Shown piece by piece: positions 14,202 to 63,121 of a stretch of 64,000 nucleotides of DNA (position 1 is the first letter of the stretch; each line of letters begins with the position of its first letter). Source of the DNA: Gemmatimonadota bacterium. GTDB lineage: Bacteria > Gemmatimonadota > Gemmatimonadetes > Gemmatimonadales > GWC2-71-9. The stretch is from NCBI GenBank assembly GCA_003222115.1, contig QHUL01000056.1:16998-80997 (forward strand), given 5' to 3'. Below the pieces are notes generated by a model that saw only the letters and a list, made by a program, of their open reading frames with translations, had not been told where the DNA came from and ran no database searches. The position numbers and the translations under genes are program-made.

Positions 14202-14650
14202 CGAGTCGCCAGCCGCCAAGAGGCTACGTCATACGAGTGCTACGGCTTAGCGCCTTAGCGTCCGGCGTCCTTGGGTTGTGCTGCGCTACGGGTTCCGCCC
14301 GCCGTGCCCCCGCGTCCCTGCGCGGCTACGACATCCTGATCACGAACAAAGACTCTCTCAGCGACGGACTGGCCCTGGCGCTGCGGCGCCGAGGGTTCAC
14401 GGTGCGGCGCAAGATCCGCGGCGGTGGTGCCCCCACGGCCGCCGTGATCATGTTCAACTCGAAGGACGACGAGCCGCCTGAGACCCACTGGTTGCACCTG
14501 CGGCTCGCGGACACGCGCAACGGGGTCATCGTGGCGGCCGTCTCGGTACCGCAGGATTCGCTCGGTCCCAGCGCGGAGTCCCAGGCGCAGGCCCTGGCCG
14601 ATTCACTGCGGAGCCAGGCCGTCCTGCGGCGCCCGATTTCCCCCCCTTGA
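14198..14650 (+). CDS. Hypothetical secreted protein or lipoprotein
   Basis: ATG at 14198 lies in an ATGA overlap with the P60 stop. Signal or lipobox-like LSALASGVLGLCCA. Confidence 0.45.
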   Translation: MTSRQPPRGYVIRVLRLSALASGVLGLCCATGSARRAPASLRGYDILITNKDSLSDGLALALRRRGFTVRRKIRGGGAPTAAVIMFNSKDDEPPETHWLHLRLADTRNGVIVAAVSVPQDSLGPSAESQAQALADSLRSQAVLRRPISPP

Positions 14651-14675
14651 CACGCCGGCCGGACGCGGTGAAATT
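14647..14675 (+). promoter_or_regulatory. Putative sigma-70-type promoter of groES-groEL (TTGACA-N17-GAAATT)
   Basis: TTGACA at 14647-14652 and GAAATT at 14670-14675. CIRCE follows immediately downstream. Confidence 0.5.
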
Positions 14676-14686
14676 CCTGCGCGTTC

Positions 14687-14713
14687 TTAGCACTCACGCG
14701 TGCTGAGTGCTAA
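14687..14713 (+). promoter_or_regulatory. CIRCE operator (HrcA binding site)
   Basis: Perfect TTAGCACTC-N9-GAGTGCTAA, about 65 nt upstream of groES. Confidence 0.92.
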
Positions 14714-14778
14714 GGTTGTGCGGTAATAGCGTTATTTCTCAAAGAGTTAGCTGACCCATCTGTTGGAGGTTGCGCGTC

Positions 14779-16745
<1,967 letters not shown>

Positions 16746-29202: not shown

Positions 29203-30638
29203 TGGGGGGGGCGAACGCGTGGGAGACGGTGATCGGGCTCGAGACGCACGTGCAGCTGCGCACCAACTCGAAGATGTTCTGCGGCTGCTCCGCAGCCTTC
29301 GGGGCGCCGCCCAACACGAACGTCTGCCCCGTCTGCCTGGGGCTGCCCGGTGCGCTCCCGGTGCCGAACGAGCAGGCGATCCGGCTCGCCGTACGCGCCG
29401 CGCTCGCCTTGAACGGCACCGTCCACCCGAAGAGCGTGTTCGCCCGCAAGAACTATTTCTATCCGGACCTGCCGAAGGGCTACCAGATCTCGCAGTTCGA
29501 CCAGCCCCTCGCGACGGACGGCTCGCTCGTGTTCCTCTCGCCTGACCGCGGCGTCGTCACGGTGTCGATCGTGCGCCTGCACGTGGAGGAGGACGCCGGC
29601 AAGTCGCTGCACGACCGCTTCCCGAAGCAGACGGCGGTGGATCTGAACCGCTGCGGCGTGCCGCTCGTCGAGATCGTGACCGGGCCCGATCTGCGCTCGC
29701 CGCAGGAGGCGCGCGCCTATCTCCTGACGCTGAAGCAGGTGCTCGAGTACACCGGCGTCTCCGACTGCGACATGGAGAAGGGGAGCTTGCGCGTGGACGC
29801 GAACGTCTCCGTGCGCCGCGTAGGGGAAACGGCCCTCGGCACCAAGGTCGAGGTGAAGAACATCAACTCCTTCGCCTACGTCGAGAAGGCGCTCACCGTG
29901 GAGCGCGATCGCCAGATCGCGCTGCGGGAGGCGGGCGGCACCGTGGTGCAGCAGACGATGCTGTACGACGCCAAGGAGAACGCGGTGCGACCGCAGCGCT
30001 CCAAGGAGGAGAGCCACGACTACCGCTATTTTCCGGACCCCGACCTGCCCCCGCTCGTGCTCTCGACCGAGCTCGTGGCGGAGCAGCAGGCGACGCTCCC
30101 GGAGCTGCCGGCGCGCAAGCGCGACCGCTTCGTCGCTCAGTACGCCCTGTCGCAGCAGGACGCGAGCGTGCTCACGGCGAGTCGCGCGGTCGCCGACTAC
30201 TACGAAGCCGTGGTCCACGCCGGCGCGGACGCGAAGGCGGCGGCCAACTGGGTGATGGGCGAAGTGCTGGCGGACGCGAAGGCGCATGACGACCAGCTGC
30301 GCGCCTCTGCGGGCGCGCTCGCCCAGCTCATCGGGTTGGTGCGGGGCGGGACCCTGTCCCACCAGGCTGCGAAGCGCGTCTTCGGCGAGGTGGCCGATCG
30401 GGGCGGCGACCCGCGCAACGTGGCCGAGGCGCTTGGCCTCGTGCAGGTGGCGGACGCGGGCGTTCTCGCCGGCTGGGTGAGCGACGTGCTCGCGAGCCAG
30501 CCGCAGGAGGTTGCGCGCTACCGCAGTGGGGAGACGAGGCTGCTGCAGTTCTTCGTGGGGCAGGTCATGAAGGCCTCGCGCGGCAAGGCCGACCCGAAGC
30601 TGGCGCAGCGGGTGCTGGAGGAGAAGCTAACCGCCTGA
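29199..30638 (+). CDS. gatB: Asp/Glu-tRNA amidotransferase subunit B
   Basis: WETVIGLETHVQL, CPVCLGLPGALP, and the C-terminal YqeY-like tail. The start is GTG 29199 or ATG 29202. Confidence 0.92.
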   Translation: MMGGANAWETVIGLETHVQLRTNSKMFCGCSAAFGAPPNTNVCPVCLGLPGALPVPNEQAIRLAVRAALALNGTVHPKSVFARKNYFYPDLPKGYQISQFDQPLATDGSLVFLSPDRGVVTVSIVRLHVEEDAGKSLHDRFPKQTAVDLNRCGVPLVEIVTGPDLRSPQEARAYLLTLKQVLEYTGVSDCDMEKGSLRVDANVSVRRVGETALGTKVEVKNINSFAYVEKALTVERDRQIALREAGGTVVQQTMLYDAKENAVRPQRSKEESHDYRYFPDPDLPPLVLSTELVAEQQATLPELPARKRDRFVAQYALSQQDASVLTASRAVADYYEAVVHAGADAKAAANWVMGEVLADAKAHDDQLRASAGALAQLIGLVRGGTLSHQAAKRVFGEVADRGGDPRNVAEALGLVQVADAGVLAGWVSDVLASQPQEVARYRSGETRLLQFFVGQVMKASRGKADPKLAQRVLEEKLTA

Positions 30639-31553
30639 GCGGTCGCGCCACGGCCGCTGCGCCTGCGACTCCTTCCAGTACGCGAGCGCCGGCGTCGGCA
30701 GGCCGAAGTGCTGCTCCGCCGTCGCCTCGAGCCGCTCCGGCTCGTGCCCCGCGCCCTCGTGCAGCGCCTGGCGCCGCATCCGCTTGGCCAGGAGCAGCGC
30801 CTGGTGCCCGGCCGGGTCGAGCCGGCGCGCCGCCGCATCCCGATCGCCCAGCGCCTCCATCACGTACTCGAACGCCACCGCCATATGGCGCTCCACGTCC
30901 GCGTCCGGGAGATCCCAGCGGCTGTTCTCGAGCATCAGCTGGAACGCCCACTGCCAGCTCTGGCTCTCCGTGAGCCGCACCATCCCGCGGAACAGGCGAC
31001 GGCTGGTGCGCACGCTGAACAGCGTCGGCGAGATGATGGCGTCGAGGTGCGCGTCGCTCACGGCGTGGTCCTGCAGAATCAGCTGCTTCGCCTCGGCCGG
31101 GTAGGCCGTACCCAGGTGGGTCTCGAAACGGCTCTCCCAGTAGCTGTGGCCGAGGGCCGCCGTGCTCGACGTGAGCACGAGCTGGCGCGGCACGAAGAAG
31201 TTGTGGGCTACGCTGTCCGCGGCGAGGTGGGCGAGGTAGCCGTGCCCGAAGGCGCGTAACGGGTCGGTGGGGGCGAGGTCGAGGATCTCCTGCCCCACGT
31301 GCCAGGCGTGGCAATGGCGCCCCACGGGGGCGTACTTCTTCGCCATGGACGTGTCGGCCGCGATGTTGCCGTACAGAAAATCGTACGGGAACGCCCGCAG
31401 CAGGTCCGCGATCGCGGTCGGGAGCTGGTGCAGATTGGCGAGCACGGACTCGCCCAGGTAGACGTGCGTGCCTGGCGTCCAGGCGTGCGCCGCTCCCGGG
31501 AACAGCGCCAGCGCGACGAGCGCGAGGGCTAGGGCGCCGAGCGCGCGCCTCAG
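30627..31553 (-). CDS. Zinc-dependent phospholipase C family protein, secreted; apparent CTG start
   Basis: Signal peptide LRRALGALALALVALALFPGAAHA followed by WTPGTHVY (mature N-terminal Trp plus His), and later HGYLAHLAADSVAHN. No ATG, GTG or TTG lies upstream of the signal peptide. CTG at 31553 overlaps the upstream stop (CTGA). Confidence 0.6.
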   Translation of the reverse strand: MRRALGALALALVALALFPGAAHAWTPGTHVYLGESVLANLHQLPTAIADLLRAFPYDFLYGNIAADTSMAKKYAPVGRHCHAWHVGQEILDLAPTDPLRAFGHGYLAHLAADSVAHNFFVPRQLVLTSSTAALGHSYWESRFETHLGTAYPAEAKQLILQDHAVSDAHLDAIISPTLFSVRTSRRLFRGMVRLTESQSWQWAFQLMLENSRWDLPDADVERHMAVAFEYVMEALGDRDAAARRLDPAGHQALLLAKRMRRQALHEGAGHEPERLEATAEQHFGLPTPALAYWKESQAQRPWRDRSGG

Positions 31554-31963
31554 TGCTTCCTCCGCCCGCGCTTGAGCGCCCGCCGGCCCCAGTCCACGAG
31601 CGCGATCCCGCGCCGCACGCCGCGCAGCGTGGCGGCGACGTCCAGCACCGCCGACTCGACCTCCTCCTGGACGACGTCGAGCAGGGCGTCGAGATCCTGC
31701 AGCCGCGCTTCGGCCGCGTCTGCGGCCTTGACGATGCGGGCCCGCAGCTCCCGCGAGGTCCCCGCCAACCCTTCCGCTTCGGTGCGGATCGTCGCGACGA
31801 GCTGGCGCACGTCGCCCACGGCCGGGCCCGCGAGCTGCTCCAGCAGGCGGGCGAACTGCTCCAGCCGGCGCGCCGCCACGAGATGCGTCGCCGCCAGGAC
31901 CACTCCGGCGGCCGCCAGCACGGCGAGGCTCAAGGCCCCCAACACGCCCACCCAGGTCGGCAT
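31550..31963 (-). CDS. Membrane-anchored coiled-coil protein (DUF948-like)
   Basis: N-terminal TM segment MPTWVGVLGALSLAVLAAAGVVLA followed by a long helical region. Confidence 0.55.
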   Translation of the reverse strand: MPTWVGVLGALSLAVLAAAGVVLAATHLVAARRLEQFARLLEQLAGPAVGDVRQLVATIRTEAEGLAGTSRELRARIVKAADAAEARLQDLDALLDVVQEEVESAVLDVAATLRGVRRGIALVDWGRRALKRGRRKH

Positions 31964-33223: not shown

Positions 33224-33273
33224 GCGCGAACGTTCGCGCGCGCTTGACGCGAGCGCAAGCGCCGCCGTAGCTT
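33223..33273. promoter_or_regulatory. Divergent control region: an 18-nt perfect palindrome, a second inverted repeat, and a TTGACG-N18-TAGCTT promoter-like pair for murA
   Basis: cgcgcgaacgttcgcgcg at 33223-33240. gcgcttg-N9-caagcgc at 33240-33262. TTGACG at 33244-33249 and TAGCTT at 33268-33273. The murA ATG is at 33282. Confidence 0.4.
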
Positions 33274-33281
33274 GGCGGCCT

Positions 33282-34598
33282 ATGGCTCCGGCGTTCTGCG
33301 TGACCGGCGGGCGTCCGCTCAAGGGAACGATCCGCCCGGCGGGGAACAAGAACGCGGCCCTGCCCATCCTCGCGGCCACGCTGCTGGCCGATGCGCCCTG
33401 CCGCATTGATAACGTCCCCAGGATCGGTGACGTGGAGACGATGCTCGCGCTGCTCGCCCATCTGGGCGCGGAGGTGCGCTGGACCGGCGATCACGCGGTC
33501 GAGATCGATCCCGCGCACGCCGCACCGCGCGAGCTCGACCCTGCATTGTGCGCCCGCATCCGGGCCTCCATCCTGCTCGCCGGGCCGATGCTCGCCCGCT
33601 TCGGCCGCGTCGCCCTGCCGCCCCCGGGCGGCGACGTGATCGGGCGCCGGCGCGTGGACACCCACCTCCTCGCCTTGGAACAGATGGGCGCCGAGATCAC
33701 CGTGGGCGACAGCTACAAGTTCGAGGCACCGGCTCGGGGCCTGCGGCCGGCGGACATCTTCCTCGACGAGCCCAGCGTCACGGCCACCGAGAACGTCCTC
33801 ATGGCTGCGGCGGCGACGCCCGGGACCACCGTGCTGCGCAACGCCGCGTCCGAGCCCCACGTGCAGGACCTGGCGCGGTTTCTCACCGGGCTCGGCGCCC
33901 AAGTGGAAGGAATCGGCACCAACACGCTCACCGTGCATGGCGGCAAGCTGCGGGGGGCGCCGGGTGTCGTCGGGCCCGACCACATCGAGATCGGCTCGTT
34001 CATCGGGCTCGCGGCCGCGACGAACGGCGCCATCACGATCGACGGTGTGCGCGCCGAGGACTTGCGGGCTACGCTGCTGGCGTTCGACCGATTGGGCGTG
34101 CGTCCCCGCCTCGACGGCGCCCAGCTCGTCGTGGACGACAACCAGGAGCGGCGCATCCGCGCGGACCTGGGCGGCCACGTGCCGGAGCTCGAGGACGGGC
34201 CCTGGCCCCAGTTCCCCGCGGACCTGATATCGATCGCGATCGTCGTGGCCACGCAGTGCGAGGGGCTGTTGCTCGTCTTCGAGAAGCTGTTCGAATCGCG
34301 GCTCTTCTTCGTCGACAAGCTCATCGGCATGGGAGCGCGCATCGTGCTGTGCGATCCGCACCGCGCGGTCATCGCCGGGCCCTCGCCGCTGCACGGCCAG
34401 GTCGTGGACAGCCCCGACATCCGGGCTGGCATGGCGATGCTGCTCGCCGCGCTCGCCGCGCGCGGCGACTCGGTGATCCACAACATCGGGCAGATCGAGC
34501 GAGGGTACGAGCGCATCGACGAGCGGCTGCGCGCCCTGGGGGCGCAGATCGAGAGAATCGAGGACGGCGGTAAGGCGGCTGGGCGGTTAGGCGGATAG
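33282..34598 (+). CDS. murA: UDP-N-acetylglucosamine 1-carboxyvinyltransferase MurA, with a C-terminal tail encoded by an octamer-repeat element
   Basis: GTIRPAGNKNAALPILAATLLA and full-length EPSP/MurA-type body. The last roughly 11 codons (EDGGKAAGRLGG) lie in the repeat. Confidence 0.93.
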   Translation: MAPAFCVTGGRPLKGTIRPAGNKNAALPILAATLLADAPCRIDNVPRIGDVETMLALLAHLGAEVRWTGDHAVEIDPAHAAPRELDPALCARIRASILLAGPMLARFGRVALPPPGGDVIGRRRVDTHLLALEQMGAEITVGDSYKFEAPARGLRPADIFLDEPSVTATENVLMAAAATPGTTVLRNAASEPHVQDLARFLTGLGAQVEGIGTNTLTVHGGKLRGAPGVVGPDHIEIGSFIGLAAATNGAITIDGVRAEDLRATLLAFDRLGVRPRLDGAQLVVDDNQERRIRADLGGHVPELEDGPWPQFPADLISIAIVVATQCEGLLLVFEKLFESRLFFVDKLIGMGARIVLCDPHRAVIAGPSPLHGQVVDSPDIRAGMAMLLAALAARGDSVIHNIGQIERGYERIDERLRALGAQIERIEDGGKAAGRLGG

Positions 34599-40235: not shown

Positions 40236-40517
40236 GTGGTCGTGGGACTGATCACGTGGGAGCTGCACCTCGCGGCGTGCCAGTCCCTGAAGGAGAAGCG
40301 CCACGTGTTGAAGAGCCTCAAGGACCGGCTGCACAACCGCTTCAACGTCTCCGCCGCCGAAACGGACCATCATGACCTGTGGCAGCGAGCCGAGCTCAGC
40401 GTGTGCGTCGTGAGCACCGACCGGGAGCACGCCGAGCGGGTGCTGCGCGAGGCCGATCGCCTGGTGGAGGGCGCCGCGGGCGCCCGCATCGTGGACACGG
40501 TCACGAGCTTCCTGTGA
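40236..40517 (+). CDS. DUF503 protein (YlxP-like)
   Basis: 93 aa at the conserved position between infB and rbfA. LHLAACQSLKEKRHVLKSLKDRL. Confidence 0.7.
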   Translation: MVVGLITWELHLAACQSLKEKRHVLKSLKDRLHNRFNVSAAETDHHDLWQRAELSVCVVSTDREHAERVLREADRLVEGAAGARIVDTVTSFL

Positions 40518-40873
40518 GGCGCCGACCCAGCCACCGGCCCGAGCGGGTGGGCGAGATGATCCGCCACAACGTGGCCGAGTTCCTGACCGGGAAAGCGCGC
40601 GACCCGCGGATCGGCTTCGTCACCGTCACCGCGGTCGAGGTCTCGGCCGACCTGACGCACGCCTGCGTGCGCGTGAGTGTGATGGGCTCGGACGAGGAGA
40701 AGGCGAAGAGCCTCGAGGGCCTCGCCAGCGCCGCGCGCTTCCTGCGCGCCGGCCTCGCCCGGGAGTTGCCGCTGCGCACCGCGCCCGAGCTGCGCTTCGA
40801 GCTCGATCGCGGCCAGGAGCACGCGATGCGCATCGCCCGGCTGCTGAAAGAGCTCAAGGAAGGCGCCGACTGA
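40514..40873 (+). CDS. rbfA: Ribosome-binding factor A
   Basis: GTGA overlap. RPERVGEMIRHNVAEFL ... DPRIGFVTVTAVEVSADLTHACV. Confidence 0.85.
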   Translation: MRRRPSHRPERVGEMIRHNVAEFLTGKARDPRIGFVTVTAVEVSADLTHACVRVSVMGSDEEKAKSLEGLASAARFLRAGLARELPLRTAPELRFELDRGQEHAMRIARLLKELKEGAD

Positions 40874-41730
40874 TCTCCGGGCTGGCGCTCGTGGCGAAGC
40901 CGGCCGGGCCTACCTCGCACGACGTGGTGGACGCCGCCCGGCGCGCCTTGGGAACGAGACGGATCGGGCACCTCGGCACGCTCGATCCCTTCGCCGCGGG
41001 CCTCCTCGTCCTGGTCGTCGGGCGCGCCACGCGGCTCGCGCCGTTCGCCGCACGCTGGATGAAGTCCTACGCGGGCGTCATCCGGCTGGGGACGACGACC
41101 GCCACGGACGACGTCTCGGGCGAGGTAGTGGCGACTGCAGAGGCGTGGCGCACCCTCGACCGGGAGCGGGTCGCGGCGGTGCTCGCCGAGTTGCGGGGCG
41201 CGCGGCTGCAGCGGCCGCCCGCCTACTCGGCGGTCAAGGTCGCCGGCGAGCGCGCCTACCGGCGCGCGCGCCGGGGCGAGGCCGTGGACCTCGCTCCGCG
41301 GCCTGTCGAGGTGCGCGAACTGGAGCTCACGCGCTTCGAGCCTCCGGACGCGGGCTTCCGGGCGACGGTGAGCGCCGGCACCTACCTGCGGAGCCTCGCC
41401 CGCGAGGCCGGTGCCGCCCTGGGGTGTGGGGCGCACCTGGCGGCGCTCGTGCGAACCCGCGTCGGCCCCTTCCGGCTGGAGGATGCGGTGGGGCCGGACG
41501 CGGTGACACTCGCGGACCTGCGCGACCCGGCCACCCTCGTGGCCGATCTGCCGCGGCGGGAGCTCGACGCGGCCGAGCGCACGGCAGTGGTGCACGGGCG
41601 GCCCGTCGCACTCAAGGACTCCCCGGCGGTCGCGGGAAACGTGGCGCTGTTCGCGGGAGGGCAGCTGATCGCCGTGGCCGAGCGCGTGGGGGACGTGTTG
41701 AAACCCGGGGTCGTGGTGGCGGAGCCGTGA
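40870..41730 (+). CDS. truB: tRNA pseudouridine(55) synthase TruB; apparent CTG start
   Basis: GHLGTLDPFAAG catalytic motif. The conserved N-terminal strand LISGLALVAKPAGPTSHD lies upstream of the first canonical start (GTG 40891). CTG at 40870 overlaps the rbfA stop (CTGA). Confidence 0.8.
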   Translation: MISGLALVAKPAGPTSHDVVDAARRALGTRRIGHLGTLDPFAAGLLVLVVGRATRLAPFAARWMKSYAGVIRLGTTTATDDVSGEVVATAEAWRTLDRERVAAVLAELRGARLQRPPAYSAVKVAGERAYRRARRGEAVDLAPRPVEVRELELTRFEPPDAGFRATVSAGTYLRSLAREAGAALGCGAHLAALVRTRVGPFRLEDAVGPDAVTLADLRDPATLVADLPRRELDAAERTAVVHGRPVALKDSPAVAGNVALFAGGQLIAVAERVGDVLKPGVVVAEP

Positions 41731-48220: not shown

Positions 48221-48262
48221 TGTCACGCTGATTTCACGCTGCCGCCGGAGATTGCTTCCGGA
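48221..48262 (+). promoter_or_regulatory. Promoter block P1: direct 8-mer repeat TCACGCTG-N3-TCACGCTG (11-bp period) followed by GAGATT
   Basis: Boxes at 48223-48230 and 48234-48241. GAGATT at 48248-48253. The whole 42-nt block recurs at 48700-48741 (41/42 identical). Confidence 0.5.
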
Positions 48263-48301
48263 TGTCGGGCCTCACCGTGTGACATCGAACCAGGAGGCAG
48301 C

Positions 48302-48451
48302 ATGCCCACCGGAAAGCGCATCAGCCTGAAGCTGACCCCGCAGCAGAAGGAAGAGATCATGAAGGCGACGGGGAAGAAGGCCGAAGAGCTCCAGTTCACC
48401 GTCGAGGAGCTGGAAGAGCGGATCGCGCCACTCAGGACGTACAAGTTCTAG
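48302..48451 (+). CDS. Small acidic Lys/Glu-rich peptide, 49 aa (copy 1); family not recognised
   Basis: Strong SD AGGAGG at 48292-48297, 4 nt before the ATG. MPTGKRISLKLTPQQKEEIMKATGKKAEELQFTVEELEERIAPLRTYKF. Good GC3 bias. Too short for the ORF track. Confidence 0.65.
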   Translation: MPTGKRISLKLTPQQKEEIMKATGKKAEELQFTVEELEERIAPLRTYKF

Positions 48452-48505
48452 CTTGCGAGAGCCTCGCCCCGGTGGTGTCGCTGTATCGACCCTGCGATCC
48501 GAGCC

Positions 48506-48688
48506 GTGGTGGGCGACGACGCTCCGGAGCAGGAGGGCCCGCTGCTCGATCGCATCGTGGTGGAGGTGATCTACACGTTCTCGCGGGCGATCGAGCACAC
48601 GCCCGCGTTCCTGCACGAGGTACACAAGGTGTTGCGGCGAAACGGGATCCGGCGGCTGGATCACGCCGTGCAGCTGCTCACGTTCTGA
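48506..48688 (+). CDS. Hypothetical small protein (60 aa or fewer) between the two peptide copies
   Basis: Protein-like composition (LLDRIVVEVIYTFSRAIEHTPAFLHEVHKVLRRNGIRRLDHAVQLLTF) and nearly all G/C at third codon positions. Start uncertain. Confidence 0.4.
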   Translation: MVGDDAPEQEGPLLDRIVVEVIYTFSRAIEHTPAFLHEVHKVLRRNGIRRLDHAVQLLTF

Positions 48689-48699
48689 GGCGAACGCCG

Positions 48700-48741
48700 T
48701 GTCACGGTGATTTCACGCTGCCGCCGGAGATTGCTTCCGGA
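48700..48741 (+). promoter_or_regulatory. Promoter block P2: second copy of the direct-repeat block (TCACGGTG-N3-TCACGCTG, then GAGATT)
   Basis: Boxes at 48702-48709 and 48713-48720. GAGATT at 48727-48732. Confidence 0.45.
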
Positions 48742-48775
48742 CCTGAAGCTGACCCCGCAGCAGAAGGAAGAGATC

Positions 48776-48880
48776 ATGAAGGCGACGGGGAAGAATGCCG
48801 AGGAGCTGGAGTTCGGCGTCGAGGAGCTGGAAGAGCGGATCGCGCCCCTCAAGTTTGGGGCGAGCGGCGGTCTGCAGTAA
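48776..48880 (+). CDS. Second, 5'-truncated copy of the small acidic peptide (34 aa from the internal Met; the frame is open from 48689)
   Basis: The stretch from 48742 onward is about 93% identical to 48325-48436, but 62 nt carrying the SD and ATG of copy 1 are missing. The retained ATG at 48776 is preceded by aaggaag. The tail diverges (APLKFGASGGLQ versus APLRTYKF). Confidence 0.4.
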   Translation: MKATGKNAEELEFGVEELEERIAPLKFGASGGLQ

Positions 48881-57760: not shown

Positions 57761-57854
57761 GGGGGCGGATTGGGCCTGGTGGTCTGAGCGGTCTTCAAAA
57801 CCGTCTGGGGCTCGCAAGGGCCTCGGTGGGTTCGATTCCCACACGCTCCCGCCA
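57761..57854 (+). tRNA. selC: tRNA-Sec (anticodon UCA), CCA encoded
   Basis: Manual fold. The 8-position acceptor stem GGGGGCGG/ACGCUCCC has 1 GU and 1 terminal mismatch. The D-stem is 6 bp (UGGGCC/GGUCUG) with a 4-nt loop. The anticodon stem GCGGU/ACCGU carries the loop CUUCAAA. The variable arm is 21 nt. The T-arm is GUGGG-UUCGAUU-CCCAC, followed by discriminator G and CCA. Confidence 0.8.
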
Positions 57855-57872: not shown

Positions 57873-58448
57873 TCACCCGGCGCCCGCGACCGACCTGTCG
57901 AAGTGCGGTTTTTCGACCGCGCGGTAGAACGTGAGGATGGCCGCCTGGTCGAACAGCGCCGCGGCGAGCCCCGGCAGTGAGCCGGCCAAGAGCGCCAGGC
58001 CGTAGACTTGCAGATAGCCGACGGTGTACATGGGGTTCTTGAAGAAGCGGTACGGTCCCGCAATGCTCGGGGTGGTCCGATTGGCAGGCCCGAAGAAGTT
58101 CGACCAATAGTAAGCCCGGCCACCGAGCGTGGCCGCGGCCCAGGCTTTGGTGAGCACGCCGACGAGCACGAGCACCGCGCCCGCCGCGATGACGAAGCCG
58201 CGGGGCGACCCGATCGCCAGCGTGTTCCGACTCACGACGCACAGCACTACGAAACTCACCGCATCGCTGCTCATGAGGATCGCCGCCGCCCGGCGGAAGC
58301 GCCGGAATCCCTCCTCGGGGCCGTAGCGCCGCGTGAAGTAGCCTGTGCGCTCCTGACGTCTCAGGGCAAGCCCGACGTAAAGCACGTAAGCGAGCCGGCT
58401 CGCCAGGTGATAGGCGAGGGCGAGCGCGGTCCACACGGGCACGGACAT
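57873..58448 (-). CDS. Membrane methyltransferase of the PEMT/ICMT (isoprenylcysteine carboxyl methyltransferase-like) family
   Basis: Polytopic membrane protein with GPYRFFKNPMYTVGYL near the C-terminus. Confidence 0.6.
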   Translation of the reverse strand: MSVPVWTALALAYHLASRLAYVLYVGLALRRQERTGYFTRRYGPEEGFRRFRRAAAILMSSDAVSFVVLCVVSRNTLAIGSPRGFVIAAGAVLVLVGVLTKAWAAATLGGRAYYWSNFFGPANRTTPSIAGPYRFFKNPMYTVGYLQVYGLALLAGSLPGLAAALFDQAAILTFYRAVEKPHFDRSVAGAG

Positions 58449-58511
58449 GGCGAGAGAAGTTAACCCGCCTACGGCTCACTGCCTCGGTGGCGGACACGTA
58501 TCTTACAGCCT

Positions 58512-59405
58512 CTGATCTCCGCCCACGTCATCGTCAATCCCGCCGCGGGGCGCGGTGCCGGGGAGCGCGCGCTGGACCCCGTGGCACGGGCCTTTCGCCA
58601 GCAAGGGTGGGCCGTCGAAGTGACGCGGACCGGGGGCCCCGGAGAGGGCGCCGCGCTCGCCGCGGCCGCCGTCCGCAGCGGGGCGCAGCGCGTCGTGGCG
58701 GTGGGCGGTGACGGCACCGTCCACGAGGTGGCGAACGGCCTGCTGCGCTCGGGCGGCGCGGTCCCGCTCGGCGTGGTCCCGCTTGGCACCGGTAACGACT
58801 TCGCCAAGCTCGTCGGAGTCCACGGCTGCGCACCCGTCACCGCCGTGGGGCGGCTCGTCACGGCGGATGCCAGGGTGTTCGACGTGGGGCGGGTCGGCGA
58901 CGAGCGCTTCGTCAACAGCCTGGGCCTGGGCTTCGGACCCGCCGTCGTGCGGGCGCGCAACGCGATGCCGGGACTCCGGGGCTTCCTGTCGTATTTCGTG
59001 CCGGTGCTGCGCGCCTACGGCGGGTTCCGCCCGCCGCTCGTCGAGATCCGCTCGGCCGAGTTCCGGGAGCGGGGGTATGTGATGATGGTCGAGGTCTGTA
59101 ACGGGACGACCGCCGGCGGGGACTACCGGTTCGCGCCCGATGCCGACCCCGCGGACGGCCGGCTCGACGTGTGCCTGGTGCGCCGTGTGGGGCTGCCGCG
59201 GTTTCTGCTCGCAATCCCGCGGGTCATGCGCGGCACCCACGGCCGCATGCGCGAGGTGGCCTTGTTCCGCACGCGCCGCCTCATCGTACGATCCCCGGAG
59301 GCGCCGCTGCTGTTGCACCTCGACGGCGAGCTGCGCGAGCCGGGAACGAACGAAGTGACCGTGGCAGTGGAGCCGCGCAAACTCAAGGTGCTGGTGGCGC
59401 GATGA
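58512..59405 (+). CDS. Diacylglycerol kinase-family lipid kinase (YegS/DagK-like); apparent CTG start
   Basis: VIVNPAAGRG and VAVGGDGTVHEVANGL motifs. The NPxxG motif lies upstream of the first canonical start (GTG 58581). The in-frame candidates are CTG 58512 (LISAHVIVNP) or CTG 58479. Confidence 0.75.
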   Translation: MISAHVIVNPAAGRGAGERALDPVARAFRQQGWAVEVTRTGGPGEGAALAAAAVRSGAQRVVAVGGDGTVHEVANGLLRSGGAVPLGVVPLGTGNDFAKLVGVHGCAPVTAVGRLVTADARVFDVGRVGDERFVNSLGLGFGPAVVRARNAMPGLRGFLSYFVPVLRAYGGFRPPLVEIRSAEFRERGYVMMVEVCNGTTAGGDYRFAPDADPADGRLDVCLVRRVGLPRFLLAIPRVMRGTHGRMREVALFRTRRLIVRSPEAPLLLHLDGELREPGTNEVTVAVEPRKLKVLVAR

Positions 59406-61116: not shown

Positions 61117-63121
61117 CCTCGCGCTGCTGCTGCTCGGCGCCGCGCGGGCGCCCGCTCAGCAGCCGGACGAGGTGCTCGTCGCCGAGCTCGCCCGCGTGCT
61201 CGCCGCGGCGGACGCGCGCGCATTCGACGCCGCGCTGCTGCGCAACGCGCTCGGGCACGCCCGGCCTGCCGTGCGACGGCAGGCGGCACTCGCCGCGGGG
61301 CGGATCGGCGATCCGGCGGCGGTCGACCTCCTGGTCGCGGCGCTGCGCGACTCCGATCGCACGGTCCAGGCGGCGGCGGCGTTCGCACTGGGGCTGCTGA
61401 AGGATCCCCGCGCCGTCGAGCCGCTCGCCGCGCTGGTGCGCGCGGTGGCGCCGGCGCAGCAAGGGGCGCCCGAAGTGGAGGCCGTGACGGCGCTCGCGAA
61501 GATCGGTGGGGACCAAGCGGCGCGCGCGCTGGGCGATCTTCTGGGCAGCGGCTCGCGGCCGGGCATCGCGCCACCCCCCGCCGTGAGCGCGGCGCTGCTC
61601 GAGGCGTGGCGCCTCGGCGCCCAGGCTCCCATCGCGGCGCTGCTTGGGTATGCGGAGGACGCGGACGCCGACGCGCGCTGGCACGCGGCATACGCGCTCG
61701 GGCGGCTGCGCGCCGGCGCCGGCGTGCCCATGCTGCTGGCCGCGCTGCGCGACCGGGAGCCATTCGTCCGCGCGACCGCCCTGCGCGGTCTCACGCGCGC
61801 AGCCGCGGACAGCGCGCGGCTCGAGCCCGGCCGAGTCGCGGGCGCGGTCCGCCTGTTGCTCGGGGATGGCGACCCGGCCGTGCGCATCAACGCGCTCCGC
61901 GCCCTCGCGAGCTTCCGCGACTCGACGCTCGCCGCGGGGGCGGCCCCGCTCGCCACCGATCCCGACGTGAACGTCGCGGTGCAGGCCGAGACGACGCTGG
62001 GCGCGTTGGGGGGGAGTGGGGCGGTGCGGGCGCTCGCCGCCGGCCTACGGAGCGCCGTGTTTGCTCTGCGGCGCCAGGCGGTGATCGGGCTTGCTCAGGC
62101 GGACAGCGTCGCGGGTGTGGGCGCCGCGGCGGCGCTTGCGAGCGACCCCGACTGGCGGTGGCGCAGCGTGGCCTGCGAGGCGTTCGGCGCCGCGCGCGAT
62201 CGCGCGCGCCTCGAGGGGGCGCTCGCAGACCCGGACGGGCGCGTGGTGGCGGAGGCGCTGCAGGCGCTCGGGCGGGTCGTCGCGGACTCGGACGCCGCGC
62301 TGCTCGCCCGCGCGCGCGAGCTGCTCGGGCACGCCGATCCCGCCGTGCGCAGCGTCGCGGCGGACCTGCTCGCCCGCCGGCCCGATGTCGCCGACGTCGA
62401 TCGCTTGGTCACGGCGTACCAGAGGGCGGCAGGCGATCCGTTCGACGACGCGCGGCTCTCAGCCGTCGCCGCGCTCGGCGCCGTGGCGCGCGCGGGCGCC
62501 GAGGGCCGGCTGCGGGTGGCAGCCCGGTTCGTGGCCGCGGTGCCCCGCCCGGACGACTACCTGGTGCGGCGGGTTGCGGCCGACCGGCTCCCCGACGCCG
62601 CAGAGGCCTGGGGCCCCGTCGTCCCGATCGCCACGGGCAAGACGGACGCCGACTACCGGGACGCGGTGCGGCGCGTGCTGCTGCCCGCGCTTGAGGGCCG
62701 GGCGCCGCCCCGCGTGACCCTCGAGACGGACCGGGGGAGCCTCGTGGTGGAGCTGCTCCCGGCCGAGGCGCCGCTCACGGTGGCCGCCTTCCTTGCGCTC
62801 GTCGAGCGGCGCTACTTTGATGGCGCGCGCTGGCATCGGGTCGTGCCCAACTTCGTCGCGCAGGACGGGGATCCGCGCGGCGACGGGTGGGGCGGCCCCG
62901 GCTTCGTGCTCCGGGACGAGGTGAATCCCACGCGTTACGAGACGGGTACGATCGGCATGGCGCTTTCCGGGCCCGATACGGGCGGCAGCCAGTTCTTCAT
63001 CACCCACTCCGCCCAGCCGCACCTCGACGGCACCTACACCGTCTTCGGTCGCGTCGTGGCCGGCCTCAACGTGCTCGCGGGCGTCGCCCAGGGCGATCGC
63101 ATCCGCAGCATCCACCGCTGA
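61076..63121 (+). CDS. Secreted HEAT-repeat protein fused to a cyclophilin-type peptidyl-prolyl isomerase
   Basis: Signal-like LALLLLGAARAPAQQ. About 10 HEAT/PBS-lyase-like repeats (D..VR..AA.ALG). C-terminal WHRVVPNFVAQDGDPRGDGWGGPG...GGSQFFIT. Confidence 0.75.
   Translation: MRCSRRRPIPFSCSLALLLLGAARAPAQQPDEVLVAELARVLAAADARAFDAALLRNALGHARPAVRRQAALAAGRIGDPAAVDLLVAALRDSDRTVQAAAAFALGLLKDPRAVEPLAALVRAVAPAQQGAPEVEAVTALAKIGGDQAARALGDLLGSGSRPGIAPPPAVSAALLEAWRLGAQAPIAALLGYAEDADADARWHAAYALGRLRAGAGVPMLLAALRDREPFVRATALRGLTRAAADSARLEPGRVAGAVRLLLGDGDPAVRINALRALASFRDSTLAAGAAPLATDPDVNVAVQAETTLGALGGSGAVRALAAGLRSAVFALRRQAVIGLAQADSVAGVGAAAALASDPDWRWRSVACEAFGAARDRARLEGALADPDGRVVAEALQALGRVVADSDAALLARARELLGHADPAVRSVAADLLARRPDVADVDRLVTAYQRAAGDPFDDARLSAVAALGAVARAGAEGRLRVAARFVAAVPRPDDYLVRRVAADRLPDAAEAWGPVVPIATGKTDADYRDAVRRVLLPALEGRAPPRVTLETDRGSLVVELLPAEAPLTVAAFLALVERRYFDGARWHRVVPNFVAQDGDPRGDGWGGPGFVLRDEVNPTRYETGTIGMALSGPDTGGSQFFITHSAQPHLDGTYTVFGRVVAGLNVLAGVAQGDRIRSIHR

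Follow-up and report, generated by a model that had tools for sequence, protein, structure and literature searches.

Where does translation begin in a gene whose conserved N-terminus is encoded upstream of every ATG, GTG and TTG codon open to it? The question is raised three times by a stretch of 64 kb (contig QHUL01000056.1; 72% GC), here called the window, from an uncultured Gemmatimonadales lineage of soil and groundwater metagenomes, as placed by look-ups of identical proteins and by scanning species-representative genomes. The genes concerned are truB, a gene for a YegS-type lipid kinase, and a gene for a phospholipase C (PLC)-like protein of the Zn_dep_PLPC family, identities that the original prediction had assigned from the sequence and that TIGR00431, TIGR00147, and PF00882, respectively, confirm. 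Family profiles and ortholog alignments also bear out its claim that in all three the conserved N-terminal features lie ahead of the first canonical start codon, which here always means ATG, GTG, or TTG, the near-cognate codons being CTG and ATC. The explanation that we consider likely is that three CTG codons are genuine starts, those of truB and the PLC-like gene being reached through a CUGA overlap behind a Shine–Dalgarno (SD)-like motif and that of the kinase gene standing on a probably leaderless mRNA. The proposal that the three genes start at CTG is supported by the position of the CTG, which takes the exact place that GTG, TTG, or ATG has in relatives, and by SD or −10 geometry that is aimed at the CTG.

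A codon-usage scan with a simple caller built on the window and its 61 genes puts the coding boundary at 40870 for truB, at 58512 for the kinase gene, and at 31544 for the PLC-like gene, and only these three genes lack a canonical start near their boundary. An A- or G-to-C sequencing error at 31553, 40870, or 58512, which had been raised as a possible artifact, is excluded, since the sites are identical across independent assemblies: the truB junction is the same base for base in 10 independently assembled contigs of 98.3–99.9% identity, the PLC-like junction in 7 assemblies, and the kinase site in 2 further contigs. As foreseen for gene callers limited to ATG, GTG, and TTG, public Prodigal-type calls on near-identical contigs truncate the three proteins, to 279 amino acids (aa) from 40891, 274 aa from 58581, and 272 aa from 31445; no SD motif was found ahead of these three GTG codons.

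The rbfA–truB junction

The proposed truB start, CTG 40870–40872 on the plus strand, overlaps the TGA stop (40871–40873) of rbfA as CTGA, rbfA itself spanning 40556–40873 (+) with its start taken from public assemblies (PF02033, TIGR00082, and gene calls). Read from this codon, the coding sequence (40870–41730, +) specifies 286 aa, and its match to TIGR00431 (207 bits; cut-off 151) begins at residue 3, which corresponds to position 2 of the profile. The motif of the catalytic Asp, GxxGTLDP, is present as GHLGTLDP, and TruB entries in the PDB are matched with E-values down to 4e-50. Upstream, the frame is closed by a stop at 40411–40413 and is open from 40414, and no canonical codon occurs in it until GTG 40891–40893 (+), which encodes a Val inside the first β-strand and is where the public calls start. 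With CTG as the start, three residues stand ahead of the conserved Gly, and this Gly (G4) is paired in the alignment with G4 in the T. maritima enzyme (MKHG...) and with G7 in that of M. tuberculosis; the N-terminal peptide of such a product is predicted to be MISGLALVAK (PAGPTSHDVVDAAR). An SD-like AAGGAAGG is found at 40856–40863 (+), within the 3′ end of rbfA and 6 nt before the CTG.

This arrangement was compared across loci of species-representative genomes, which include, with the window, 26 loci of the Gemmatimonadales clade with TruB identities of 52–87%. In all 26, a CTG overlaps the rbfA stop and lies 9–16 codons before the conserved KP(A/G)GPTSHD, and in eight of them (L016, L017, L018, L020, L024, L025, L027, and L037) no ATG, GTG, or TTG occurs between the CTG and KP. 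More distant Gemmatimonadota, including Longimicrobiales, have the same junction as GTGA (L033, L034, and L040), TTGA (L044), or ATGA (L035, L036, and L038). The codon that follows the CTG differs among species (ATC, ATT, ACC, ACG, ACA, ACT, AGC, or AAA), leaving CTG as the sole initiation candidate common to all, and several relatives, for example L014 and L176, have GTC in place of GTG 40891.

The SD motif and the substitutions were analyzed in an alignment of 20 loci of the clade. In every one of them a GGAGG-like motif, judged by eye, is located 4–9 nt before the CTG, even where the C-terminus of RbfA differs. From the CTG to KP, the minimum numbers of substitutions at codon positions 1, 2, and 3 are 9, 13, and 25, compared with 22, 18, and 19 in the preceding 24 nt, and in the subclade that reads LISG every difference is synonymous (ATC/ATT, TCC/TCG, and GGC/GGT/GGG), which indicates, at the level of the alignment, that the codons just after the CTG evolve like translated sequence. 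The last codon of rbfA is likewise variable: in 24 loci it is GAC (10), GGC (9), TCC (2), AGC (2), or CCC (1), with C always as the third base. Synonymous codons ending in G are common here (GGG, TCG, and CCG make up 30%, 61%, and 57% of their own families) yet are unused at this place, giving a hint of selection for C, a reading that the phylogenetic non-independence of the loci keeps weak.

Such junctions are close to a truB peculiarity. A census of the syntenic 20 kb of 25 relatives counted 51 canonical −4 overlaps (27 GTGA, 22 ATGA, and 2 TTGA) and 25 canonical −1 overlaps, and the CTGA-only junctions in it are essentially that of truB alone, plus that of the PLC-like gene at locus edges. 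Given this near-confinement, the truB CTG is, as judged by the comparison of these loci, a gene-specific and conserved feature of the whole order, neither a recent mutation nor the outcome of general drift.

Most public TruB models of the order (P0001–P0120, loci L011–L032) begin at the internal Val of the first β-strand (V/M-ALVAKP) or later, and these models are probably 4–23 residues too short. The 'M' of P0003 and P0005 (MAKPAG) was considered as an ATG in place of the Val codon, and hence as a start that had migrated to 40891; the idea was dropped, since in the DNA of L173–L175 that codon is GTG, with another GTG upstream of it, the letter being a convention of the source.

The PLC-like gene and the lipid kinase gene

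The second CTG, 31551–31553 on the minus strand, overlaps the TGA (31550–31552) of an upstream gene of 137 aa, so the CTGA overlap described earlier for two genes is present in both, at 40870–40873 and at 31553–31550. An SD motif, GGAGGA (31558–31563, −), precedes this CTG by 4 nt, and similar motifs are found in relatives. The proposed coding sequence (30627–31553, −) specifies 308 aa, of which residues 29–147 match PF00882 with 54.1 bits (gathering threshold 26.8). Its first 24 residues (31482–31553, −), L/M-RRALGALALALVALALFPGAAHA, form a signal-peptide-like leader ahead of Trp25 (31479–31481). No canonical codon occurs in the frame from GTG 32261 to GTG 31445 (31443–31445, −), the latter encoding residue 37, past the Trp and the first His, and serving as the start of the public 272-aa model; further near-cognate codons of the frame are CTG 31592, CTG 31511, and CTG 31505. 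Among relatives the orthologous codon, 24 codons ahead of the Trp, alternates between GTG, forming GTGA, in L177 (97% identity), L016, and L018, and CTG, forming CTGA, in the window, L178 (87%), L014, L022, L029, and L176.

The family at large supports this position. Among 120 close homologs, W-x-P-G-[TS]-H is found in 118, with AHA or AxA before nearly all; about 45 are called with the Trp at residue 25, which places their canonical start at the ortholog of codon 31553, and about 23 are called from inside the leader and are thus shortened. A separate alignment of 64 diverse members (27–55% identity) has A24, H30, D67, H82, H109, D113, H117, H136, and E140 invariant and W25 in at least 90%, with a hydrophobic leader of 20–24 aa in each displayed row (about one row in three). 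Within the signal peptide, strains differ by a synonymous CTA/CTG polymorphism. The conserved leader and W motif match a cleaved signal peptide that would expose an N-terminal Trp beside the metal site, with WTPGTHVYLGESVLANLHQLPTAIADLLR as the predicted mature N-terminus once the leader of the CTG-started product is removed. The W25/His/Asp/Glu pattern is, we presume, that of the ligands in the sites of B. cereus PLC and P1 nuclease.

The claim that the signal peptide and the Trp lie upstream of the canonical start thus stands on the family alignment, and the part of it that makes Trp25 a zinc ligand next to the metal site is inferred from the conserved ligand pattern, the fold search having returned no significant match. 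An AlphaFold2 (AF2) model from a shallow alignment was discarded (predicted local distance difference test, pLDDT, 42), and one from the diverse alignment (pLDDT 89, all-helical) had no Foldseek match in the PDB at E ≤ 0.001; in that search B. cereus PLC (1p5x) came at rank 3 with a weak probability of 0.38 and a template-modeling (TM) score of 0.27–0.33. A sequence search of the PDB with the protein gave no match, and the family is structurally under-described. Some public gene models of this region (P0125, P0171, and P0222; 30627–31963, −) pass from the N-terminus encoded by the upstream 137-aa gene straight into the PLC-like body, skipping the junction; these fusions look like artifacts of spliced models that arise where a canonical start is absent.

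In the lipid kinase gene, the proposed start is CTG 58512–58514 (+), and the coding sequence from it (58512–59405, +) specifies 297 aa. TIGR00147 (YegS/Rv2252/BmrU) is matched with 163 bits against a cut-off of 119, its position 4 falling on residue 4; PF00781 and the alignment with DgkB (2qv7) likewise begin at residue 4, PF19279 is matched as well, and the VIVNPAAG segment, which carries the NPxxG strand, and GGDGT are both present in the translation. An in-frame TAA ends at 58463, and no canonical codon follows it before GTG 58581–58583 (+), which encodes residue 24, past the VIVNPAAG strand and its loop, and opens the public 274-aa model. Beside TruB's MISGLALVAK, the N-terminal peptide predicted for CTG-started proteins is (M)ISAHVIVNPAAGR. 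Across 33 distinct upstream regions of orthologs, the start codon, six codons before (I/V)(I/V/L)NPxAG, is GTG in 14, CTG in 9, TTG in 7, and ATG in 2. In-frame stops set close limits in some: L108 has a TAA four codons before its CTG with no canonical codon between, and L102, L107, and L120 have a TAG two codons ahead of their TTG.

The upstream neighbor of the kinase gene is divergent, so that the −4 coupling geometry does not apply. What precedes the CTG is instead a −10-like hexamer, TATCTT (58499–58504, +), which ends 7 nt before it with no SD motif between. The same kind of hexamer, TAnnnT (TATAAT, TATTAT, TATACT, TATCTT, and others), ends 5–10 nt before the start in 29 of the 33 regions, against a background of 0.0011 per nt. 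This geometry suggests that the kinase mRNA is probably leaderless or has a leader of 0–3 nt. The description of leaderless mRNAs as those with a 5′-terminal AUG or GUG does not hold for this gene, which has CTG in the window and in eight other contexts and TTG in seven. An upstream open reading frame ending at TGA 58513–58515 was rejected from the sequence. Immediately upstream of the divergent pair that includes the kinase gene lies a selenocysteine tRNA (tRNA-Sec) gene (57761–57854, +; anticodon TCA; RF01852, 79 bits), the sole match of an Rfam scan.

The original prediction had further pointed out that truB and the kinase gene share the start CTG ATC TCC. The identity, CTGATCTCC, is present, and its meaning did not hold up: the window has two occurrences of the 9-mer where 0.45 would be expected, and, because 9 of 100 shuffles reach two occurrences and kinase orthologs read CTG ATC CAC or CTG GTC CAT and do not keep it, the coincidence is put down to chance.

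Promoter geometry and CTG frequency in the window

The putative leaderless start of the kinase gene is not isolated in the window. The aroA gene (ATG 33282) has the promoter TTGACG-17-TAGCTT (window 33237–33284, +), whose −10 box ends 8 nt before the ATG; near-identical promoters are found in about 10 related species, some with the variant −10 boxes TAGTTT, TATGGT, or CATTCT. This spacing indicates that the predicted aroA mRNA is leaderless. Five more genes of the window (starts 10571, 16828, 22110, 58448, and 60614) have TAnnnT 6–9 nt upstream and, together with the aroA promoter, make leaderless or near-leaderless mRNAs seem normal in this lineage, as far as promoter geometry can tell. An SD usage of 22% for the class Gemmatimonadetes (PMC10783764) agrees with this reading.

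Three CTG starts among 61 genes would be an elevated share compared with the 0.7% mapped in C. crescentus (PMC4117421); our own Poisson estimate is P ~0.01, though the window was picked after the fact because of these three. One more case (61118–63121), in which CTG CTG CTG follows a TAnnnT hexamer, was rejected, since a normal signal peptide is obtained from GTG 61076 and the upstream stop falls within the hexamer. When the boundary scan was extended to 23 related loci with 216 genes, it gave 23 flagged cases; truB accounts for about half, and the others either have a canonical start only a few codons away or resemble caller noise. In L014, a TatD-like gene (14434–15252, +) has its canonical start 16 codons past the boundary and a CTG two codons in (CTC CCG CTG), which is either a possible CTG start or caller noise. 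A generalized tolerance of CTG is not demonstrable from this 216-gene scan and the 25-locus junction census.

A further observation in the window concerns 48221–48880 (+), where two copies of a small open reading frame, one of 49 aa and the other of 57 aa, have the peptide LKLTPQQKEEIMKATGK.AEEL.F.VEELEERIAPL in common. A conserved 42-nt element precedes each, a 110-nt direct repeat of 94% identity is present, and the arrangement varies among strains; an 802-aa BTAD/AAA_16 regulator adjoins them on the opposite strand. The small open reading frames may encode precursor peptides.

Proposed initiation at CUG and its alternatives

How would such codons be used? By analogy with other non-AUG starts, the initiator tRNA would read CUG as Met. 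At the truB and PLC-like junctions, ribosomes ending rbfA or the 137-aa gene would be delivered onto the weak CUG by the −4 overlap, through SD-aided translational coupling or re-initiation, an arrangement that mirrors the canonical overlaps of the window as the original prediction had held (11 GTGA and 3 ATGA, together with 5 TGATG, among 50 co-directional pairs). For the kinase gene, the 5′-proximal NTG, be it GTG, TTG, or CTG depending on the species, would serve as the start on a leaderless transcript, from a transcription start that we infer from the −10 geometry. One speculation is that the weak codon holds the output of TruB low relative to RbfA, or renders TruB sensitive to initiation factor 3 (IF3).

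Several observations weigh against initiation at these CTG codons. ATC 40873 and ATC 58515 directly abut the CTG of truB and of the kinase gene, and either may be the codon in use; the truB frame has another near-cognate at CTG 40882. Many truB relatives have a GTG four codons downstream (Val of G-V-ALVAKP), a possible alternative or additional start, and about 40 of the 120 PLC-like homologs have an in-frame ATG or GTG 13–14 codons further upstream, within the preceding gene. CTGA is common by chance, with C ahead of 20 of the 44 TGA stops in the window. A strict sigma-70 scan of 58300–58700 found no full promoter upstream of the kinase gene of the window, and at leaderless positions in mycobacteria CTG and TTG were poor initiators (PMC4633059), so that a leaderless CUG would be weak or would need a different regime of discrimination.

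The alternative that survives best, although we judge it unlikely, is a non-canonical start at a neighboring near-cognate codon: ATC 40873, ATC 58515, or CTG 31592, at which many relatives have ATG or GTG. An ATC abuts the CTG in both plus-strand genes, further ATC and CTG codons lie in the frames (CTG 58479, ATC 58500, and ATC 58530 for the kinase gene), an ATC start has been documented (PMC2830850), and the roughly 40 PLC-like homologs mentioned above are called from the upstream position. For this reason, the statements that CTG is the only in-frame near-cognate and that the genes can only initiate at CTG were too strong. However, the codon next to the CTG is ACC, ACA, AGC, AAA, or ACT in other truB genes and GTC or GTT in other kinase genes, whereas CTG is the sole common candidate, and the upstream ATG of the PLC-like homologs arises from Glu-Trp codons of the overlapping gene and would add an acidic extension of 13 residues to the signal peptide.

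It is considerably less probable that the first canonical codons (GTG 40891, GTG 58581, and GTG 31445) are where translation begins and that the proteins are shorter. These are the sole ATG, GTG, or TTG codons available, and they are the ones chosen by gene callers. Against this, TruB would be left without its first β-strand and the conserved Gly in it, the kinase without 23 residues of DAGK_cat and without the NPxxG strand and loop, and the PLC-like protein without any of its signal peptide, without Trp25, and without the invariant His30, while GTG 40891 is replaced by GTC in L014 and L176 and the canonical codons have no SD motif ahead of them.

Slightly less credible again is the view that the CTG codons are start-inactivating mutations or errors and that the genes have fallen silent or are in decay. 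In its favor, CUG initiates weakly, with 1–2% of the activity of AUG in E. coli reporters (10.1101/063800), and the kinase CTG has no SD motif; the sites, however, are the same in independent assemblies, truB is a housekeeping gene that is conserved and has CTG in 26 loci at 52–87% protein identity, the reading frames are intact with full-length domain matches, and CTG recurs in nine distinct contexts of kinase orthologs. Fusion with the upstream protein through a −1 ribosomal frameshift just ahead of the TGA can be dismissed as the least probable of these explanations, for although the frame of truB is −1 with respect to that of rbfA and is open far upstream, such openness is typical of DNA of 72% GC, the junction (GCC GAC TGA) holds no slippery heptamer, the codon before the stop differs among species (GAC, GGC, TCC, AGC, or CCC), and the PLC-like protein requires an N-terminal signal peptide. 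Read-through of the TGA was rejected from the sequence.

Initiation at CUG, the explanation favored here, has known parallels. CUG starts are already documented, and the truB, kinase, and PLC-like cases add to a known class. In Deinococcus-Thermus, a CTG start of rpsL is conserved across the phylum, CTG starts are known for Deide_03051 and a plasmid RepA, and dnaA of Deinococcus starts at AUC (PMC2830850). Like rpsL (Baudet et al., PMC2830850), truB is a housekeeping gene with a clade-wide CTG that was spotted by a conserved N-terminus upstream of the canonical codons; it differs in gene and phylum and in that its CTG overlaps the upstream stop, and, whereas mass spectrometry supports the rpsL start, that of truB is proposed from sequence comparison. 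C. crescentus, another high-GC bacterium, in which SD sites are few and leaderless mRNAs numerous, uses CTG starts in normal expression (PMC4117421), although its 0.7% was mapped by experiment and the 3 of 61 of the window come from the sequence.

The NTGA (−4) overlap is an established setting for coupling or termination–reinitiation (PMC12548453, a review; PMC6728339). The truB and PLC-like junctions have exactly this geometry, with the coupling itself predicted, and deviate from the standard form in that N is C, which makes the start near-cognate. The leaderless mRNAs described from Actinobacteria and Deinococcus start with AUG or GUG (PMC4633059, PMC4007540). The kinase gene resembles them in its −10 box 5–10 nt before the start and its lack of an SD motif, as does aroA with its ATG; the difference is that TTG (7) and CTG (9) occur in its start column as often as GTG (14).

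The start of infC is AUU, and IF3 discriminates against non-canonical start codons. By analogy only, truB would be another translation-related gene with a conserved weak start and would be IF3-sensitive, with no sign of a feedback loop. No earlier report of a CTG start of truB, of CTG starts in Gemmatimonadota, or of leaderless mRNAs in Gemmatimonas was found in the literature.

Given that CUG is weak in E. coli and poor at leaderless starts in mycobacteria, either these genes are weakly translated on purpose or the lineage discriminates less against CUG. A broader proposal, which we put forward tentatively and regard as rather doubtful, is that Gemmatimonadales have a start-codon regime unlike that of the E. 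coli and mycobacterial models, in which CUG is a selected, gene-specific start and leaderless or near-leaderless mRNAs could begin just as easily with CUG or UUG as with GUG. Within this proposal, the truB CUG would count as selected because it is kept throughout the order even though a synonymous C-to-G change in the last codon of rbfA would give GUG.

For annotation, the consequence is that nearly all public models of these three genes in metagenome-assembled genomes of Gemmatimonadales look wrong at the 5′ end, as in PLC-like models without a signal peptide, and that such errors skew the prediction of localization and orthology. If CUG is truly used at an elevated rate in the phylum, CTG should become a permitted start for gene callers in SD-poor lineages of high GC wherever ortholog evidence favors it, and if the start-codon regime is indeed distinct, 5′ ends would be annotated wrongly for a percent-level share of the genes in a widespread soil phylum. 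For the biology of the group, the order-wide CUGA junction of rbfA and truB offers a natural test case for a weak start codon in a coupled operon, and the kinase locus a natural series of GTG, TTG, and CTG on an apparently leaderless transcript.

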